From IMG/VR virus record IMGVR_UViG_2654587972_000002: DNA of 20,000 nt, one strand, 5' to 3'. Positions 2,586 through 17,803 of this stretch are shown one piece after another. The DNA is from an uncultured virus (IMG/VR IMGVR_UViG_2654587972_000002). Its lineage: Duplodnaviria > Heunggongvirae > Uroviricota > Caudoviricetes. Numbering within the stretch: position 1 is the first letter of the stretch; every line of letters begins with the position of its first letter. The notes beneath the pieces were generated by a model. It saw nothing but the letters and a program-made list of their open reading frames with translations, ran no database searches and was not told the origin of the DNA. A program made the translations under genes and the position numbers.

Positions 2586-3593
2586 ATGTTAGGATTATAT
2601 ACACCAAAAACAATAAGAAAAGTTAGAGAAAATGTAGAAGTAAAAAGAAATTTTTTAACAGAATTATTTTTTAAAAAAGGTTCAACAGTTCCAACTGAAG
2701 AAATAATTTTAGAATATACAAAAGCTGGGGAAGCAGTCGCACCATATTTGACACCTTTAGAAGCAGGTAGACCTGTATATTCAAGAAGTAAAAAGTCAAA
2801 TGTAATTATAGCTCCTTCAATAGGACCTGAATACTCATTAACACCAAAAGATATGTTTATAAGAGAAGCTGGTCAACCTATTGAAAATTACAACCCAGCA
2901 AAAATGGTTGGTGAAAAAATTGGAAGAGTTTTATTAGACCAAGAAAATTATATTACTAACAAAATTGAATTAATGGTTTCACAATTTTTAACAACTGGAA
3001 TTGTTAAATCAGGAGATAAAGAAGCAGAGTATGAAGTCAACTATGAACTTGGAAATAAAATCACATTAGATAGCACACATAAATGGGGTGCTGCTGGAGT
3101 AGAACCTTTATTCAGTTTAGAAGAAATGATTAAAAAGGGTGAAGAAAATGGTTTAAAAACTGAAAATATAATTTTAGGTTCAAAAGCAGCTCAACTACTA
3201 AGAAAATCAGAAGAATTTAAAAAAGCTATTTCAAAGGATTTACAAAATGAATTTGTAAAAAAAGTTTTAAGAATTCATCCTGGTGTCATTTGGTTAGGAA
3301 CATATACAACATATGGTGTAGAGCTATTTTCTTACAGTAGAAAAGTAATAGGTGCTGATGGAAAACCAATACAATTAATGCCAACAAATATGGTTGTAGG
3401 TGGAGCTTCACAAGGAGAAATTTTATATGCTCCTATTGTCTTTATGTCTGAAGGAATTATTCATATGGCAAAAAGATATTCAAATTTAGATACAACAAAT
3501 CCAAAAGTTGCAAAAATTACTACAGAGTCGAGACCAGTATTACAACCTTGTGATGTGGATACTTACTTTTCTTATGTGGTATGTGATGAATAA
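2586..3593 (+). CDS. Major capsid protein, lambda gpE family
   Basis: 335 aa; N-terminal FLTELFF...VAPYL and C-terminal ESRPVL motifs; synteny. Confidence 0.9.
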   Translation: MLGLYTPKTIRKVRENVEVKRNFLTELFFKKGSTVPTEEIILEYTKAGEAVAPYLTPLEAGRPVYSRSKKSNVIIAPSIGPEYSLTPKDMFIREAGQPIENYNPAKMVGEKIGRVLLDQENYITNKIELMVSQFLTTGIVKSGDKEAEYEVNYELGNKITLDSTHKWGAAGVEPLFSLEEMIKKGEENGLKTENIILGSKAAQLLRKSEEFKKAISKDLQNEFVKKVLRIHPGVIWLGTYTTYGVELFSYSRKVIGADGKPIQLMPTNMVVGGASQGEILYAPIVFMSEGIIHMAKRYSNLDTTNPKVAKITTESRPVLQPCDVDTYFSYVVCDE

Positions 3594-3595
3594 TA

Positions 3596-3619
3596 GATAG
3601 AGAGCTTATGCTCTCTATC
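3596..3619 (+). promoter_or_regulatory. Perfect 10-bp stem-loop after capsid gene (mRNA stabiliser or partial terminator)
   Basis: GATAGAGAGC-TTAT-GCTCTCTATC; followed by AAACAAAA rather than a U-tract. Confidence 0.7.
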
Positions 3620-3887: not shown

Positions 3888-4202
3888 ATGAACTTTAAAG
3901 AGCAACTAAAAGAAGATATAAAAATTTTTCTAAATTTAGATGAATTTGGAGAAGAAATAACTATTCAAAATAAAAAATATATTGGAGTTATGGAAAGACC
4001 TGATAATGAAAGCAATAAAAAAGAATATGAAGGAATTTCTAAAGAAATAGACTATATACTTTACTTAGAATATGAGGAAGAGTTAGAAAAATATATATCT
4101 GGAAAACAAATAGATGTAAATAATGGAACATTTGAAGTTTATAGATCGTATAAAGAAGAAAGCTTATTTATTATAGAACTTCAAGAAAGGATAGGAATTT
4201 AA
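3888..4202 (+). CDS. Head-tail joining/closure protein (gpFII-like)
   Basis: MNFKEQLKEDIKIFLNLDEFGE N-terminus is typical of this prophage family; synteny. Confidence 0.65.
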   Translation: MNFKEQLKEDIKIFLNLDEFGEEITIQNKKYIGVMERPDNESNKKEYEGISKEIDYILYLEYEEELEKYISGKQIDVNNGTFEVYRSYKEESLFIIELQERIGI

Positions 4203-5590: not shown

Positions 5591-6980
5591 TCATGGTATT
5601 ACAGCAACTGAAACTCCTACAAAACTAATTGCAGCAGTTAGTGATAGTATAACTCCAGTATATGTAGGAACTGCTCCAATAAACTTATGTAAAACAAGAA
5701 ACATAAATGAACCTATTTTATGTAGTTCTTATGCAGAAGCAGTAGAAAATTTTGGATTTTCAGAAGATTTTGAAAAATATACATTATGTGAAGCAATTGA
5801 TGTTCATTTCTCAAAATTTAACATAGGTCCAATTATTTTAATAAATGTTGTAGATACAACAAAGCATACAAAAGAAGTAGCAAATAAAACAATCAATTTT
5901 GTAGATGGAAAATACTTGATAGAAGATATTGGAGTTTTACCTGAAACTGTTGTTATAACTACATCATTTGAACATACAAAAAATTTTAATGACAAAGGGC
6001 AACTAGTTTTAATTCCAAATGAAACAAAGACAGACCCTATTGAAGTAAAATACACCATGCTTGATTTAGAAAAAGTAAAAGAAACAGATATTATTGGTGG
6101 AATAGATGGAGCAACTGGAAAGAAAAAGGGGTTAGAAGCAATTGCTGAAGTTTTTCCTAAATATAGAAAGGTTCCTAGCTTAATTTTAGCTCCAAAATAT
6201 TCTGCTAGTTCAACTGTTGCAGCTGTAATTGAAGCAAAAGCAAGAAAGATAAATGGTCATTTTCAAGGTCTTGGACTTGTAGATTTAGACACATCAAAAA
6301 TTAAGAAATATGGAGATACTGTTGCAAATAAAAATACAAATAATATCTCATCTACTTTTTTAGATGTAAGTTGGCCAAAAATTTCTTTAGGAAAACAACA
6401 ATATCATATTTCTACTCAAAAAGCAGCACTAATTCAAATGCTAGCTAAAGATAATGAAGATATTCCATATAAATCACCTTCAAACAAAAATATAAAAGGG
6501 GATGGAGCAATTCTTCTTGATGGGACTCCTATAAGATTAGGACTTGATGAAGCTAACTACTTAAATAGTCAAGGAATTTCTACTATTATAAATTGGATTG
6601 GTGGTTGGAGATTTTGGGGAAATAGAACATCTTGTTATCCAGCAATATCAGATCCTAAAGATTCATTTATAGTAAGTAGAATGATGTTTAACTGGGTTAT
6701 TAATTCTCTTGTATTAACATATTGGCAAAAAATTGATGAACCAACAAACAAAGTATTAATAGAAACAGTTACAGATAGCATCAATATTTGGTTAAATGGT
6801 CTTGTATCAGCTGGGAAATTAATAGGTGCTAGAGTTGAATTTAGAAGAGAAGACAACCCACAAACTAGTTTAATTGATGGAAAAATCAAATTTAAGTTAT
6901 ATTATACACCAGCTCTTCCAGCTGAAGAAATTAAATTTGATTTAGAAATTGATGTTAAATATTATGAAAAATTATTTTAG
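5580..6980 (+). CDS. Contractile tail sheath protein (P2 FI-like)
   Basis: MAFNHGI, YVGTAP, SPSNK, ANYLNSQGI, GWRFWGNRT and TPALPAEEIKF motifs. Confidence 0.95.
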   Translation: MAFNHGITATETPTKLIAAVSDSITPVYVGTAPINLCKTRNINEPILCSSYAEAVENFGFSEDFEKYTLCEAIDVHFSKFNIGPIILINVVDTTKHTKEVANKTINFVDGKYLIEDIGVLPETVVITTSFEHTKNFNDKGQLVLIPNETKTDPIEVKYTMLDLEKVKETDIIGGIDGATGKKKGLEAIAEVFPKYRKVPSLILAPKYSASSTVAAVIEAKARKINGHFQGLGLVDLDTSKIKKYGDTVANKNTNNISSTFLDVSWPKISLGKQQYHISTQKAALIQMLAKDNEDIPYKSPSNKNIKGDGAILLDGTPIRLGLDEANYLNSQGISTIINWIGGWRFWGNRTSCYPAISDPKDSFIVSRMMFNWVINSLVLTYWQKIDEPTNKVLIETVTDSINIWLNGLVSAGKLIGARVEFRREDNPQTSLIDGKIKFKLYYTPALPAEEIKFDLEIDVKYYEKLF

Positions 6981-8369: not shown

Positions 8370-11009
8370 ATGAAAGAAATTGGAATTTCTTTTGGAATAG
8401 GAGCAGCATTAGGAGCAGGATTTGTTAAAACATTCTCGACTGCAAGTAAAGGAATTTCTGGTCTTAACCAAGAAATTATAAAATTACAAAGAACTCAAAA
8501 ATTATTAGAAAAATATGATGGAGATAAAAAAGCATTAAAAGAAAAAATTGAAGTTATTAAAAAAACTAAATTAGCAATAGCTGAGCTCAAAAAAAGTATG
8601 AAAGATGAGAAAAATCAGACAACTGAAAATGCAAAAGCATTACAAAATTTAGAAAAAAAATTAAATTCATTAAATAGTTCTTATTCAACTGAGCTAAAAC
8701 ATGTGAGGGAAACAGCAAAAGTATTGAGAGATAAAAAGGTAGATATAAGTAACACAGCAAAAACATATAAGGAACTTCAAAAAGAAATAGATAGAGCTAA
8801 TGAAGCAAGTAAAAGATTTGCAAAAGCTGAGGCATCTAAACAAGTAGCTGATAAATTTTCAAAAATAGGTGGTACTTCTATAAAAATGGGAGCTGCTGGA
8901 GTTGGGTTACTATATAAACCTGTTCAACAAGCAATAAGTGCTGAAAGTAACTTTGCTGCTGTAAAAAAACAATTTGATTTTAAAGATAAAGCTGAAGAAG
9001 AAAACTTTAAAAAAGAGCTCCATAAGATTATTACTGAAAAGAAAATAGCAATTGGACTTGATGAATTATATGCAGCAGCTGCTAATGCTGGACAAACAGG
9101 ATTAAATAAAGATGAAGCTATCCAATATATAGAACTTGCCTCTAAAATGGGAATGGCTTTTGATATGAATAGAGAAGAAGCTGCTAATGCTATGTTTAAT
9201 ATGAGAAACTCTTTAAATCTATCTTATGATGGGCTAGTTGAACTTACAGATAGAATAAACTATCTAGGAGATAAAACAGGAGCTAGTGCTTCAGCAATAA
9301 CAGATTTCACTAATAGAGTTGGAAGTATCGGAAAAGTTGCAGGATTTTCAGAAAAACAAGTTGCAGCTCTTGGAGCTTCATTAATTGAACAAGGAATGGA
9401 AGCAGAAGTTGCAGCAACAGGAGCAAGAAAAATACTTGTAGCTTTAAGTAAAGGAAATGCCACTACCAAAAATCAAGCAGAAGTTTATAAATCTTTGGGA
9501 ATAGATCCTGTTAAATTAGCTAAAATAGCACAAGAAGATAGTGAAAAAGCATTGTTTATGGTTTTTAATGAAATTAAAAAGAAAAGTAAAGATGAACAAA
9601 CTGCTATTTTAACTCAACTATTTGGTCAAGAAGGTTTAGATGCAGGCTCTAAATTTTTAACTAATATGGATAAGTTAAAAGAGAATTTAAATAAAGTAAA
9701 TGGAGATGAAGCTAAGGGAAGTGTAGATAAAGAAGCCGATATAAAAAGAGGAACAACTGAAAATCAACTTGCAATAACTATGGGGAAATTAAGTATAGCT
9801 GGAAGCCAATTAGGAGCATTATTACTTCCTGAAATAAATAAAATAATTACTGGATTTTCAAATTTATTGACAAAAATAACAGAATTTCAAAGACTACATC
9901 CTGAAGGTTTTAAAACATTTATGAAAATTTTTGGTTATGGTTCAGTAGCACTATTAGGATTTGGAAGTGCTTTAAAACTTATTTCAGGTGGAATAAATAT
10001 GTATTCTAACTATATGAAAATAGCTGGGTTTATGACAGAACATAAATTTGGAACAAAAATATTTTCTGTTGGGAAAAAACTATTAGGTGGAGTTGGTAAA
10101 ATTGCAAAAGGTTTTAAAGCTTTAAGTCTTACTATATTAACAAGTCCTGTTACTTGGATAATTGCAGGAATTTTAGCTTTAGTAGCTGCAGGTTATTTAT
10201 TATATAAAAATTGGGATACTGTAAAAGCTAAAGCTATTGAATTAAAAGATAAAGTAGTTGGACTTATTGATAAGTTTTGGTTTTTAATGGGTCCTTTAGG
10301 TTGGATTGTAAAAGCTGGAATGACAGTATATCGTAACTGGGATACTATTAAAGAAAAAGCAGGAGAATTAAAAGATAAAATAGCAAATATGGTTACTAAT
10401 ATTCTTTTAAAATGGGATAATTTCAAGGCTGCTACAAAAGAAATCTTAGGAAATGTTTTTAAATGGATGGAAGATAAATGGAACAGCATTAAAGAAGTTG
10501 GAGCAGCAGTAGCAGACTTTTTTATTGGAATATTTGATAAAATCAAGAGTGGATTTGAAACTGTTGTTGGATGGGGAAAAAAGATATTATTTATAGGTTC
10601 TGATGAAGAAAAAGCTCCACCAGGAAGAAGAGGATATTCACAACCTAATACTAAAACATATTCTTATGGTGGTAGAGGAGATATACCAAAATATGCTTTA
10701 GGTGGAATTGTAACTTCTCCTACTCTTGCTTGGGTTGGAGAAGGTGGAAGTTCAGAGTCAATTATTCCTCATGATAATAGTCGAAGAAGTTTGAACTTAT
10801 GGGAAAAGACTGGAAAATTAATAGGTGCATATGAAAGTAGTAATAACTCTAGTTCCTTTACTTTTACATACTCACCTGTTATTTATGCAAATGATAGTCA
10901 AAATATAGATAACACTCTAAGGAAAAATAAAGATGAAGCTTTTGATGAGTTTAAAAATATGATGAAAAAATATGAAAGAGAAAATATACGGAGAGGCAAT
11001 GGAAGATAA
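8370..11009 (+). CDS. Tail tape measure protein (TP901-family core)
   Basis: GGAGG (8361-8365) before ATG 8370; Ala-rich helical core, TM-like segments, NWDT/KW repeats, C-terminal YALGGIVTSPTLAWVGEGG motif. Confidence 0.95.
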   Translation: MKEIGISFGIGAALGAGFVKTFSTASKGISGLNQEIIKLQRTQKLLEKYDGDKKALKEKIEVIKKTKLAIAELKKSMKDEKNQTTENAKALQNLEKKLNSLNSSYSTELKHVRETAKVLRDKKVDISNTAKTYKELQKEIDRANEASKRFAKAEASKQVADKFSKIGGTSIKMGAAGVGLLYKPVQQAISAESNFAAVKKQFDFKDKAEEENFKKELHKIITEKKIAIGLDELYAAAANAGQTGLNKDEAIQYIELASKMGMAFDMNREEAANAMFNMRNSLNLSYDGLVELTDRINYLGDKTGASASAITDFTNRVGSIGKVAGFSEKQVAALGASLIEQGMEAEVAATGARKILVALSKGNATTKNQAEVYKSLGIDPVKLAKIAQEDSEKALFMVFNEIKKKSKDEQTAILTQLFGQEGLDAGSKFLTNMDKLKENLNKVNGDEAKGSVDKEADIKRGTTENQLAITMGKLSIAGSQLGALLLPEINKIITGFSNLLTKITEFQRLHPEGFKTFMKIFGYGSVALLGFGSALKLISGGINMYSNYMKIAGFMTEHKFGTKIFSVGKKLLGGVGKIAKGFKALSLTILTSPVTWIIAGILALVAAGYLLYKNWDTVKAKAIELKDKVVGLIDKFWFLMGPLGWIVKAGMTVYRNWDTIKEKAGELKDKIANMVTNILLKWDNFKAATKEILGNVFKWMEDKWNSIKEVGAAVADFFIGIFDKIKSGFETVVGWGKKILFIGSDEEKAPPGRRGYSQPNTKTYSYGGRGDIPKYALGGIVTSPTLAWVGEGGSSESIIPHDNSRRSLNLWEKTGKLIGAYESSNNSSSFTFTYSPVIYANDSQNIDNTLRKNKDEAFDEFKNMMKKYERENIRRGNGR

Positions 11010-14630: not shown

Positions 14631-15258
14631 GTTAGAACATGCAAGTTACACAGCGATATTTCCTGAAAATTTAAAAAAATATAAAAATCTAACAGCATTT
14701 TCTAAAAATATTGAAAACACTTTTAAAACTTATATTGTAAGTAAAATTCAAAATTTAGCACTTTTTTATAATCTTGAAATACAGGAAGATAAAGTATTAG
14801 ATGAAATTGCTTGGTTCTTTAATATTGATAAATATAGAACTGATTTAGATAGGGAAATAAAAATAAAATTAATAAAATCAGCATATTGGGTGCACTCAAA
14901 AAAAGGAACTAAAACTGCTGTAATTTCTCAATTAAAAAATCTAAATTATGAAATAAAAATTGAAGAATGGTTTGAATATGGGGGAAGACCTTTTACATTT
15001 AGACTTATAACAGGAAATGAGAGTAAAGATAAAAACTGGTTAAAAAATGTTTTATCACTTATAGAAGAATATAAAAATGTTAGAAGTATTCTTGAAGCTT
15101 TTTATTCATTGAAAGAAAAAAAATATAACTATTATGTTGCAGGATATAAAGAAGTATTTATAACAGCAAAAAAAGTTAATGCTGCAGAAGATAGAGAGAT
15201 AAATAAAAACATATTCTTAGGAGCATATAAGCAAATTAGAAAGGAGATTATAAAATGA
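14623..15258 (+). CDS. Tail protein I (P2 gpI-like)
   Basis: LDEIAWFF, H.KKGTK.AV, EEWFEYGGRPFTF and YKNVRS.L motifs. Confidence 0.92.
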   Translation: MNKLEHASYTAIFPENLKKYKNLTAFSKNIENTFKTYIVSKIQNLALFYNLEIQEDKVLDEIAWFFNIDKYRTDLDREIKIKLIKSAYWVHSKKGTKTAVISQLKNLNYEIKIEEWFEYGGRPFTFRLITGNESKDKNWLKNVLSLIEEYKNVRSILEAFYSLKEKKYNYYVAGYKEVFITAKKVNAAEDREINKNIFLGAYKQIRKEIIK

Positions 15259-16286
15259 AATTTAGTGGATTAACTAAGAAAGGAAGAGCATACCTGGCAA
15301 AATGTCAAGCTGCTTCTACTCCAATTCAATTTACAAAAATGAAATTTGGAGATGGAAAACTTATTGATAATGAAAATCCAGCAGATTTGACAGATATAAA
15401 AAATATAAAAGTAGAAAAATCAATTTTAAGCAAAGAGTCAAAAGGGGATGCAGTTGTATTAACAACTATTATAGATAATGTTTCACTTGGACAAGGGTAT
15501 TTCCCAAGAGAAACAGGAATATATGTATTAGATGAAGGTGTAGAAGTTTTATATTTTTACATGAACGATGGTGATGAAACTTCTTGGATTCCACCTGAAG
15601 CTGATGGACCACATAGAATGGAAGTAAAAATTAATTTAATTTCATCAAATACTGGTTCTGTTATTGTTCATAATGATGGGAAAGATTTATACATTACAAA
15701 AGAGTATTTAGAAGCAAATTACACCCAAAAAGGTGAATATGATGGAACAGCACAAAATATTGAAGATAGAGTTGTTGCAGCAGTTGGAAAAGAAGATGGG
15801 AAATTTCCATTATCAGAGGCAATTCAAGGGAATGTTTACTACTTTATGGGAAATAAAAAATTCTACTATTGTTTAAAAAGCCAAAGTAATAGAGTGAGTG
15901 TTCCAAATGCAGATTTTGAAGAATTGTCTATTTATCAAAATCGGAAGAAATTGGAAAATTTATCTAGTTCTGGCTCTAAAAAAATAGAGCTAAATATTCC
16001 TAATTCAAGTTACTCTTATGCTTATAGAATAGGGGATATCTGCATTTTAAACATAGATAGTGGAAGTGCTTTTGTTGGAAAAAAAGCGAATGACATACTA
16101 TTTAAATTACCATCTAATTTATATCCAAAAACTAGGACTATCGCAACACTCGGCTCTTTCGTTCCTCGACTAAGTAGAGAAATTGTAGTATATATAGAGC
16201 CGAATGGAGATTGTGTCTTAAAAACTCAAGATGCAGTTTGTCAGACCGCATACTATGGGAATATTAGCTATATAGTCCAAAATTAA
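15255..16286 (+). CDS. Tail fibre protein (N-terminal baseplate-anchor/tail-collar domain plus variable C-terminal tip)
   Basis: GLTKKGRAYLAK..FTKMKFGDG and RETGIY motifs of P2 gpH-type N-termini; tip with YRIGDICIL..LFKLP...P..YIEPNG pattern. Confidence 0.85.
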   Translation: MKFSGLTKKGRAYLAKCQAASTPIQFTKMKFGDGKLIDNENPADLTDIKNIKVEKSILSKESKGDAVVLTTIIDNVSLGQGYFPRETGIYVLDEGVEVLYFYMNDGDETSWIPPEADGPHRMEVKINLISSNTGSVIVHNDGKDLYITKEYLEANYTQKGEYDGTAQNIEDRVVAAVGKEDGKFPLSEAIQGNVYYFMGNKKFYYCLKSQSNRVSVPNADFEELSIYQNRKKLENLSSSGSKKIELNIPNSSYSYAYRIGDICILNIDSGSAFVGKKANDILFKLPSNLYPKTRTIATLGSFVPRLSREIVVYIEPNGDCVLKTQDAVCQTAYYGNISYIVQN

Positions 16287-16297
16287 ATATAAAAAAC

Positions 16298-16321
16298 TGA
16301 ATAAATTTAAAAATCTATTCA
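16298..16321. other. Dyad with 11-bp arms and 2-bp AA core (candidate recombination or protein-binding site)
   Basis: TGAATAAATTT-AA-AAATCTATTCA; arms 10/11 complementary; intergenic. Confidence 0.5.
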
Positions 16322-16341
16322 AAATTGAAAGGAGTAAAAAT

Positions 16342-17103
16342 ATGTTCTACATATATACAAAACAAAAAAAAGCAGAGATAAAGTTCACAGTAAATCTAAC
16401 AGCAAATGAAGTTAGAGATTTTATGGGTAATAATTTATTTTTAGATTACCCTGAATTAAACAAAGATGACTATATAGTAGTTGAAAAAAATGAACCATTC
16501 AAATATCCAACTTATGATGTAGCAACTAATAGTATAAGAGAAATGAGTAGAGATGAGCTTATTGAAGAAGACATTGAAATTCAATTAGTCCCTGGGGAGT
16601 ATATTGAAAATAAAAAATTAAAGTTTATTCCACAACCAAGTACTTACCATACTTGGAATACTGGTACACATAATTGGGATATAAATATGGAAGATGTTAA
16701 GAGAACATTTAGGCACAAGTTTAGAGAGATTTTATTAGATAAAATGTTTGGTTCTTATGAACATGATGGTAAGATTTTTCAAATGAAAGAATACGATGAA
16801 ATTAATTTTATGCGTGTAAAAATGGCATTAGACATTGCTGGAGAAACAGAAGACTACAATGTAATAAAAAAAGCATTAGAAACATTGGGTATATCTGTAA
16901 ACAAAGAACTTGAAGAAAAAATAAAAGGTGCAATGAAAATTGGAAAACTAAAACAATTTTTAAAATCTTTAAATACACAATGGAGATTAAAAGATAATTC
17001 TGTTGTACCTATCTCGCTTGGAGACTTAAATCAAGTTTATTTCTCTTGGATATTAAGAGTTATAGCTGCTCAAAACAAATACACTGCTATAACTAAAAAA
17101 TAA
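16342..17103 (+). CDS. Tail fibre assembly-type protein (DUF4376-like), apparently truncated by an A-tract frameshift; natural end probably 17150
   Basis: Follows the fibre; PQPSTYHTW...W and WRLKDNS motifs; the -1 frame after the A6 run continues IRDVETVKELETIEWE*. Confidence 0.75.
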   Translation: MFYIYTKQKKAEIKFTVNLTANEVRDFMGNNLFLDYPELNKDDYIVVEKNEPFKYPTYDVATNSIREMSRDELIEEDIEIQLVPGEYIENKKLKFIPQPSTYHTWNTGTHNWDINMEDVKRTFRHKFREILLDKMFGSYEHDGKIFQMKEYDEINFMRVKMALDIAGETEDYNVIKKALETLGISVNKELEEKIKGAMKIGKLKQFLKSLNTQWRLKDNSVVPISLGDLNQVYFSWILRVIAAQNKYTAITKK

Positions 17104-17175
17104 GAGATGTTGAAACTGTTAAAGAACTTGAAACAATTGAATGGGAATAAAAAGAAAAGAGGTAGAGATAAAAGT

Positions 17176-17790
17176 ATGAAAAAATTCGCATTAGTAATAG
17201 GACACAATCCTAGAGGAGAAGGAGCTTATAGCACACATTTAGGTTTATCAGAATACAGATATTGGAGAAATGTTTGTGATGAAATTAATCAAATAGATGA
17301 TAATATTGATATTTATTCAAGAAAGCCTGAAGAAAATTACATCCAGGAAATGAAACCTGTTGTTACCGAAATTAATAAACATAATTATAATTTTATTTTA
17401 GAATTACATTTTAATGCAGCTTCTCCACAAGCAAAAGGATGTGAAAGCTTAGTTTATTACAAAAATGAACAAGCTAAAAAAATTGCTACAGCTTTTATGA
17501 ATAAATTAAAAGCTGAATATGGAAGTAACATAAGAAGAGAGTGGAACAAGTTAAAAGAAAAGAAAATAGATAAAAATGGTAAGGAAGAAATAATAGAAAA
17601 AACAGTAGAAACACAGGGTATAATCCTGATTACTGATTCCAAAACGAGAGGAGGTTATGGAATATGCAATACAAATTGTACTTATGTTTTGGTTGAACCC
17701 TTCTTCGGAACTAACGAAGAAGCAAGTAAATTTAAAGATGTAAAAAAAATGGCACATTTTATAGTTGATTTTATAAATAGTATAAAATAG
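17176..17790 (+). CDS. Endolysin, N-acetylmuramoyl-L-alanine amidase (Amidase_3)
   Basis: LVIGH, SEY, LELHFNA and VLVEPFF zinc/catalytic motifs; AGAGG upstream of ATG 17176. Confidence 0.92.
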   Translation: MKKFALVIGHNPRGEGAYSTHLGLSEYRYWRNVCDEINQIDDNIDIYSRKPEENYIQEMKPVVTEINKHNYNFILELHFNAASPQAKGCESLVYYKNEQAKKIATAFMNKLKAEYGSNIRREWNKLKEKKIDKNGKEEIIEKTVETQGIILITDSKTRGGYGICNTNCTYVLVEPFFGTNEEASKFKDVKKMAHFIVDFINSIK

Positions 17791-17803
17791 TAGGAGAAAA
17801 AAA

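Follow-up and report, generated by a model that had tools for sequence, protein, structure and literature searches.

In the shufflon of plasmid R64, the tips of pilV are swapped by the tyrosine recombinase Rci. Crossover between the sites of tyrosine recombinases is prevented by unlike spacers, and heterospecific pairs of lox sites are employed in engineered cassette exchange. Among phages, the Rin shufflon from Bifidobacterium breve and Bifidobacterium longum prophages is presented, in passages of its description (Mavrich et al. 2018, PMC6109161), as the first phage-encoded tyrosine-family invertase responsible for variation of a receptor-binding protein (RBP); the same passages also describe a single inverted locus without a flanking recombinase. 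The term shufflon is likewise used for Eggerthella lenta prophages (PMC8778435). The present analysis concerns a tail-fibre gene and its 3′ surroundings within a stretch of 20,000 nucleotides (nt) from an uncultured virus (IMG/VR IMGVR_UViG_2654587972_000002; hereafter the window), which constitutes the late region of a P2-like Fusobacterium prophage (myovirus). Comparison with related loci indicates that the window probably carries a collapsed allele of a tail-fibre tip shufflon, now an inert relic. In a preliminary description, made from the sequence alone, the tip of this fibre had been proposed to be a swappable cassette bracketed by two related sites of the Hin/Gin/Cin type.

Fibre stem, crossover site and tip cassette

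The relatives used for comparison comprise phage Funu1, Fusobacterium vincentii ATCC 49256 (L034), F. necrophorum phage phiRTG5, and IMG/VR contigs, with 29 loci in the main set (individual loci are cited by numbers of the type L034). In tblastn searches with residues 1-236 of the fibre, the match reaches residue 236 in all 29 of these loci, and of 26 IMG/VR matches to the whole fibre, 8 terminate precisely at this residue and 10 at residues 236-239. The part beyond it, the tip, is 88-89% identical in L010 and L011, whose stem is only 42% identical. It is also found with 100% amino acid identity as a silent cassette in L031, where it adjoins the recombinase gene (95.5% DNA identity over window positions 15952-16304), and in P0003, where it is placed behind a palindromic double head. 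The tip family contains 13 members that are alike from the ENL motif on, in at least six different upstream contexts. In an alignment of four fibres the LEN motif is invariant, and the Funu2 fibre changes from JD-Fnp3-like to Funu1-like exactly there. In L034, the closest overall relative, nucleotide identity with the window is 88.6% up to 15961 and 89.2% from 16283 to 17796, the 321-nt tip of the window being replaced by 3.7 kb of shufflon. Contigs of relatives, on which the switch in reads near 15955 suggested in the preliminary description was followed, give a faint indication of the same boundaries: a Logan contig tracks the window to 15962 and continues into another tip, and another contig breaks or joins at 16283. 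The earlier view of the 107-residue tip as a movable cassette, with the in-gene site as its 5′ boundary, is thus upheld: the tip recurs in silent form, and the break of identity at KLENL that was expected among homologues is located at residue 236 (15961-15962).

The sequence TGGAAAATYT occurs in the window at the in-gene site only. Because TTGGAAAAT is present in 28 of 30 stems (both exceptions being non-synonymous) and the Leu codon of the site is TTG in 30 of 30, versus TTA or CTA in 17 of 18 at the second LEN located six codons upstream, the constraint at the in-gene site acts on the DNA. From its position alone, the tip is presumed to be the receptor-binding end; its predicted structure (from a 13-row alignment) reached a mean predicted local distance difference test score (pLDDT) of 42.5 and was unusable. 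A protein of 52 residues (P0013; source-named Fusobacterium polymorphum), found on seven contigs, shares its last 48 residues with the end of the tip and differs in the first four; it may be what is left of a truncated cassette in another genome.

Between the fibre gene and the next gene, the relatives contain up to seven silent start-less tip cassettes, located on both strands. Each cassette is headed by TGGAAAAT, the invariant 8-bp block of the head sites, and reads ..EN(L/F); its left context varies up to just before this block, and cassette-specific DNA begins just after it. In Funu1, approximately 2 kb lie between the fibre gene and the homologue of the following 253-residue protein, with three start-less open reading frames (ORFs) on both strands and a 324-residue ‘integrase’, and two of the heads together form a perfect palindrome, RFSTVENL being read from either strand. 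The complete IMG/VR provirus L007 has six heads (one in the stem and five silent), and the L034 contig has eight (seven silent cassettes) together with the recombinase and a 155-bp switch discussed below. In phiRTG5, the order is fibre, two reverse ORFs, recombinase, next gene. Site-headed start-less ENL cassettes near a recombinase, which the preliminary description had suggested looking for, are therefore present in relatives (Funu1, L007, and L034). Individual tips occur in both states: L004 expresses LQRYEVLDK, which L005 and L007 carry as a silent cassette; IKVKNNKIF forms the expressed tip of L015 and L034 and a silent cassette of Funu1 and L007; and FKYSEIF, the expressed tip of L007, is silent in Funu1, L005, and L034.

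The 324-residue protein encoded beside the cassettes matches PF00589 (E-value 8e-23) and, weakly, a SAM-like N-terminal domain, with Xer models matched far below their cut-offs; as judged by these profile matches, it is an Xer-like tyrosine recombinase. The records of Funu1 and phiRTG5 name it just ‘integrase’, and the phiRTG5 enzyme is 60.6% identical to that of L007. The gene is located between the fibre and the next gene in 5 of the 29 loci and also in L031, L034, and L035 (8 loci in total), and it lies on the strand of the fibre in 7 of the 7 loci that display both stem and recombinase. In the intact form, this enzyme, encoded just after the fibre gene, would invert the DNA between short sites composed of approximately 6-bp inverted arms, an asymmetric TGGAAA spacer, and the invariant core. 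With one site in the fibre gene at ..LEN(L/F) and the others heading start-less cassettes that lie tail to tail on the two strands, each inversion would join a different tip of approximately 100 residues to the constant stem, presumably changing receptor specificity.

Two arrangements in single contigs may be mentioned here. The left 77 nt of the L031 contig repeat, in inverted orientation, the flank next to the recombinase gene as far as the site core (L031:1-80 versus L031:647-726, 79/80 identical). This inverted end comes nearest to direct evidence of inversion; assembly of a population with both orientations of the segment yields such a pattern, and it could also be a real repeat. L015 (1-2270) contains two fibre genes in convergent orientation, of which the second is accompanied by a gpI-like gene of its own; between them lies a single tail-to-tail cassette pair, IKVKNNKIF / ITNDNYSF, which is also an inner shufflon segment in L007. 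The arrangement could be a real two-fibre layout, the result of inversion involving two prophages, or a chimera created at the shared site during assembly.

The assignment of the gene as a tail fibre is supported by phrog_23632 (E-value 1.5e-97) as well as tail-fibre PHROGs, and by its location after baseplate J and P2 gpI homologues. The nearest named phages by fibre are Fusobacterium phages: identity is 67.5% over 343 residues with the Funu1 fibre, 57.7% over residues 1-248 with JD-Fnp2, JD-Fnp3, and JD-Fnp5, and 34.6% over residues 159-343 with Funu2. NCBIfam gave no match for the fibre or for the 253-residue protein, and none of the 202 pattern matches from a search of genome contigs with a fibre-alignment pattern was confirmed.

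The intergenic dyad and the 155-bp switch

The two sequences compared in the preliminary description are present at their positions with exact letters. The in-gene 24-mer GGAAGAAATTGGAAAATTTATCTA (15943-15966), which reads RKKLENLS within the fibre gene, forms a dyad at 6 of 11 positions, and the intergenic 24-mer TGAATAAATTTAAAAATCTATTCA, located 3′ of the fibre stop and 5′ of the ribosome-binding site of the next gene, at 10 of 11; the ungapped alignment of 15933-15963 with 16288-16318 gives 24 of 31. The raw match by itself is only modestly unusual, because the next-best matches of the intergenic 31-mer on both strands of the window reach 23/31 (at 3199) and 22/31 (at 8539 and 14662). In dinucleotide-preserving shuffles, a match of at least 24/31 with any intergenic 31-mer was obtained in 6 of 1000 shuffled fibre genes, and an 11-2-11 dyad of 10/11 in 2 of 5000 shuffled intergenic 55-mers. 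The dyads and their likeness, as described earlier, hence stand out from shuffled sequence, including in the shuffle comparison advised for the 24/31 match. The 20 kb contain just two 11-2-11 dyads at the 10/11 level, at 16298 and 3596. The second one (3596-3619, GATAGAGAGC-TTAT-GCTCTCTATC) is an ordinary GC-rich hairpin directly 3′ of the capsid gene stop and probably constitutes a terminator or a transcript-stabilising element.

Membership in the site family was assessed by the strongest of the tests, which does not depend on the window: a weight matrix built from 32 unique silent-cassette head sites taken from the relatives only; these sites were chosen by GGAAAAT plus an open frame, and a few of them fall inside the recombinase gene. 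Among approximately 40,000 positions of the window, the in-gene site ranks first (15940, plus strand, 16.5 bits) and the intergenic dyad second (16295, plus strand, 12.1 bits). The dyad on the minus strand comes third with 5.5 bits, so that the intergenic site scores higher in the direct than in the inverted orientation, and the best background position reaches 4.1 bits; beyond the in-gene site and the dyad, the matrix reveals no further sites in the window. Because it ranks second of approximately 40,000 positions in a matrix derived from relatives only, the dyad belongs to the same site family as the cassette heads. The sites are better described as a 6-bp asymmetric spacer flanked by inverted arms of 6 bp than as dyads with a 2-bp centre: the cassette heads correspond to (A)TAGAT-TGGAAA-ATCTA(T) and the intergenic dyad to ATAAAT-TTAAAA-ATCTAT (16301-16318). 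The dyad lies in direct orientation relative to the in-gene site, and their spacers, TTAAAA versus TGGAAA, differ at two positions.

The role of the dyad becomes apparent from the relatives. Homologous sites are present approximately 30 nt 5′ of the next gene in L001, L006, L007, L009, L010, L014, L024, and L034. In seven loci (L001, L007, L010, L024, L027, L031, and L034) the right site is paired with an inverted copy just past the recombinase stop, 122 nt away, the site-to-site segment being 155 nt long in 7 of 7. This segment is in one orientation in four loci and in the other in three; once oriented it aligns without gaps, and the outer flanks are fixed. Switch sites correspond to AWARATTT(G/A)AAAATYT, with the central base G/G or A/A within each locus (7/7), and the segment itself is a rough palindrome. 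On this comparative basis, the 155-bp element would be a short stretch of invertible DNA whose sites have a spacer class of their own: past the recombinase gene, the second pair of sites (TTGAAA or TTAAAA, matched per phage) would flip it. The use of the segment as an invertible promoter is unsupported, the promoter scan being at the chance level: promoter-like sites in the switch (Funu1 and L024) and in the window locus are no more frequent than in shuffles. A terminator scan of the same switches and of the window locus found no terminator at the dyad.

Because of its direct orientation, its different spacer, and its pairing with an inverted copy in the relatives, the intergenic dyad is not the second crossover site of the tip. 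The bracketing of the tip by two partner sites, as proposed in the preliminary description, is accordingly not supported; in the relatives the dyad is a member of the pair for the 155-bp switch. The 3′ boundary of the tip, approximately 16283-16304, is left of the dyad centre (spacer at 16307-12) and resembles a joint formed by deletion at a 17-nt repeat rather than by site-specific recombination. The fusion of the ..KNLF.. frame of the dyad to the ATG of the next gene is due to chance; the frame is out of register or stopped in L006, L007, and L024.

Coordinates of the fibre locus in the window and of the 155-bp switch in relatives
Feature	Location	Strand	Basis
Tail-fibre gene, 343 residues	15255..16286	+	ORF; PF12571 tail-collar fibre N-terminus, E-value 2.3e-5
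Constant fibre stem, residues 1-236, ending ..RKKLENL	15255..15962	+	tblastn, ends of IMG/VR matches
In-gene crossover site (shufflon head site), AGAAAT-TGGAAA-ATTTAT	15946..15963	+	Top match of the relatives' site matrix
Tip cassette, residues 237-343 plus stop, 107 residues	15963..16286	+	Recurs on other stems and as a silent cassette
17-nt repeat TTAAATATAAAAAACTG, probable deletion joint	16283..16299	+	Same string at two places in relatives
Intergenic dyad, orphan right-hand switch site	16298..16321	+	Second in the site matrix; homologous sites in relatives
Next gene, 253 residues, tail-associated	16342..17103	+	phrog_2837 ‘tail protein’, E-value 5e-8
155-bp switch	L001:6990-7144; L007:9564-9718; L024:7374-7528; L027:7892-8046		
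155-bp switch	L010:7009-7163; L031:1694-1848; L034 reverse complement 4031-4185		

The gene that follows the dyad encodes a protein without a Pfam match; its homologues come after the fibre or the shufflon in 23 of the 29 loci, and the L034 homologue is 87.7% identical over the full length. Most relatives conserve only the first 110-145 residues, and the full length is kept in L008, L012, and L034; the C-terminus may be another variable, specificity-linked part. Overall, the window encodes the portal, protease, capsid, sheath, tube, tape measure, gpU-like, baseplate J, and gpI-like proteins, followed by the fibre, the 253-residue tail-associated protein, an amidase, a DUF1353 protein, and a holin.

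Origin of the window allele and alternative explanations

Only 55 nt separate the fibre stop from the next gene in the window, and they contain no start-less spare cassette. PF00589 is absent among the 28 window ORFs scanned, and tblastn with the Funu1 recombinase found no homologue in the window. The earlier statement that the window holds neither a recombinase nor a spare cassette is confirmed by the ORF scan, tblastn, and the site matrix. The junction itself is marked by TTAAATATAAAAAACTG. In L031, L011, and L010 this string follows the window's tip where the tip abuts or overlaps the end of a convergent cassette, and in L010, L006, L034, and L001 it also constitutes the inner flank of the right switch site. 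The window has a single copy, exactly at the joint, and homology to L034 resumes at its first position; thus the right-hand switch site is retained together with 17 nt of its inner flank. Because there is one copy of the string at the joint and two locations of it in relatives, a deletion between two TTAAATATAAAAAACTG repeats in a shufflon-bearing ancestor is inferred as the simplest origin of the allele. By this recombination, the window would have lost the whole interval between the stop codon of one tip and the final 17 nt of the 155-bp segment, leaving an intact in-gene site, one fixed tip, and an orphan right switch site. Since the two remaining sites are direct, with unlike spacers, and the 20 kb contain no inverted partner, spare tip, or recombinase, the locus is most likely inert. 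The wording ‘remnant of a shufflon’, one of the options considered in the preliminary description, is accordingly the best description of the window: spare tips and recombinase are absent and the site is kept.

Other loci display comparable states, in support of an origin by deletion. In L010 (6776-7000), a truncated forward cassette runs into the last recombinase codons (..KQEKS* followed by ..GIFstop-like DNA), the recombinase gene being deleted; the switch and a hybrid leader come after the decayed cassette. This locus is an intermediate stage of decay. L009 and L014 carry a second collapsed allele with a different joint. The alleles of L006 and L029 are likewise without a shufflon.

Several observations weigh against the interpretation of the window as a collapsed, inert shufflon. 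Eleven relatives (class II) carry one inverted cassette with an intact head and no adjacent recombinase, and a recombinase homologue was found in none of the four complete class-II records, which have only end-located integrases; either action in trans is common or these loci are relics as well. The direction of change is presumed to be a deletion here, an insertion in the relatives being the less favoured alternative. The evidence covers the 20-kb window, and a recombinase or spare cassettes could be encoded elsewhere in the host. At every locus, the support for shufflon activity is comparative. The best-matching sequencing run covers a share of 0.27 of the window, and a joint of 14877 to 16287 in one contig (side 21) does not count as evidence. 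Finally, the spacer rule, by which unlike classes of sites do not cross, draws its support here from the constant orientation of the recombinase gene alone (7/7). As a side observation on class II, the stem cores of L026 and L028 (both at 6220) are changed to TTGAAAAAT and TTGGAAGAT, respectively, both non-synonymously, and each locus has one reverse cassette and no adjacent recombinase; the changed cores fit relaxed selection on the site.

Some of these points bear on the possibility that the locus still works, with a recombinase acting in trans, from a co-resident prophage or the host, and swapping tip modules directionally via the two unlike sites. Such exchange would agree with the presence of two intact members of the site family in the window and with the class-II loci. 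It would also agree with Funu1 (with a recombinase) and Funu2 (without), which come from one strain and have near-identical expressed tips on different stems. The L010 leader is a hybrid with its joint at the right arm of the site, and the sequence 3′ of the site varies by locus up to the ribosome-binding site, as does the downstream gene in L027 and L031. Nevertheless, exchange in trans is improbable for the window, given that the 3′ homology boundary of the tip lies away from the dyad spacer, that homology to L034, L006, and L001 continues straight through the dyad, and that the changed cores in the class-II stems L026 and L028 suggest decay without a recombinase. A broader form of the idea, in which one recombinase would serve two orthogonal classes of sites (tips versus a regulatory 155-bp switch) and the window sites would form a docking platform for directional tip exchange, is doubtful; because two unlike sites flank the tip module, such exchange between co-resident prophages may be possible.

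It is very unlikely that the dyad serves the next gene as a regulatory or RNA element (an operator, part of a promoter, or a terminator) and resembles the in-gene site as a result of AT-rich composition. The G+C content of the window, 27.5%, and the 23/31 match found elsewhere in it would agree with such an explanation, and a dyad approximately 30 nt before the next gene is found in many relatives, with or without a shufflon. However, the matrix built from cassette heads places the dyad above nearly all other positions, in seven loci it is one of two inverted sites around a segment seen both ways, with the crossover at the site, and the scans gave no terminator-like and no above-chance promoter-like signal there. 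The shuffles (P about 0.006 for the match and 0.0004 for the dyad) point in the same direction. A serine invertase of the Gin/Cin/Hin type, acting on 26-bp sites with a 2-bp core, has virtually no likelihood left. An 11-2-11 dyad with an AA or GA centre can be traced in each of the sequences, and Gin and Cin switch fibre tips in Mu and P1 according to passages of PMC6109161. PF00239 is nonetheless absent from the window proteins and occurs in five relatives' records only as genome-end frames of 472 and 512 residues, which are large serine integrases by size, while the gene beside the cassettes encodes a tyrosine recombinase in eight loci. With this enzyme adjacent in the relatives and no serine invertase near the locus, the Hin/Gin/Cin comparison of the preliminary description is unsupported, and the collapsed shufflon remains the preferred interpretation.

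Significance and relation to known systems

No description of a shufflon in Fusobacterium phages was found in the literature searched, outside of which lie the original Funu1 paper (Cochrane 2016) and the JD-Fnp supplements; the main text of the JD-Fnp paper contains none of the terms ‘shufflon’, ‘recombinase’, ‘integrase’, or ‘tail fiber’. Within that literature, the Fusobacterium shufflon family appears to be undescribed. Fusobacterium nucleatum and its relatives are targets for phage control, and host range is largely set by fibre tips. Funu1-type prophages have up to eight interchangeable tips and a dedicated recombinase, which explains their mosaic fibres; the cassette arrays constitute a ready catalogue of natural tips, and the progeny of a lysogen may be mixed in specificity. 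The window illustrates how such switches probably decay through simple deletion, leaving functional-looking sites.

Systems of this kind are already known since the Rin shufflon (2018); what is new is the sequence of the site, the occurrence of palindromic double heads, a second class of sites together with its 155-bp segment, and a clear example of collapse by deletion. As in the passages on Rin, the relatives combine a constant 5′ part of the RBP or fibre gene with start-less 3′ cassettes, each behind a short repeated site, and a flanking Xer-like tyrosine recombinase distinct from the prophage integrase (a likeness of organisation only); the lone inverted locus without a recombinase mentioned there resembles the 11 class-II loci. 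In contrast to Rin, the system belongs to a P2-like myovirus with a host from the Fusobacteriota, the site core TGGAAAAT is unrelated to the 11-bp TTCCCTAACCC given for Rin in those passages, many heads are perfect palindromes that serve two cassettes, and a second site class surrounds an invertible 155-bp segment. The window itself, without cassettes and recombinase, shares with Rin only the constant 5′ part and the crossover site. Alternative fibre tips also arise by site-specific inversion with Gin (Mu), Cin (P1), and Min (p15B), as noted in parts of PMC6109161; those systems use small serine invertases and an enhancer, in contrast to the tyrosine recombinase of the relatives described here.

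The R64 shufflon is similar in the multiple inversion by a tyrosine recombinase that exchanges adhesin C-termini and in the recombinase gene adjoining the array, whereas its target is a plasmid pilus gene instead of a phage fibre and its site sequences are unrelated. By analogy with heterospecific lox pairs, the two site classes differ only in the spacer and are matched within each pair (7/7 loci); the lox pairs are engineered, and the classes in the Fusobacterium loci are putatively orthogonal.

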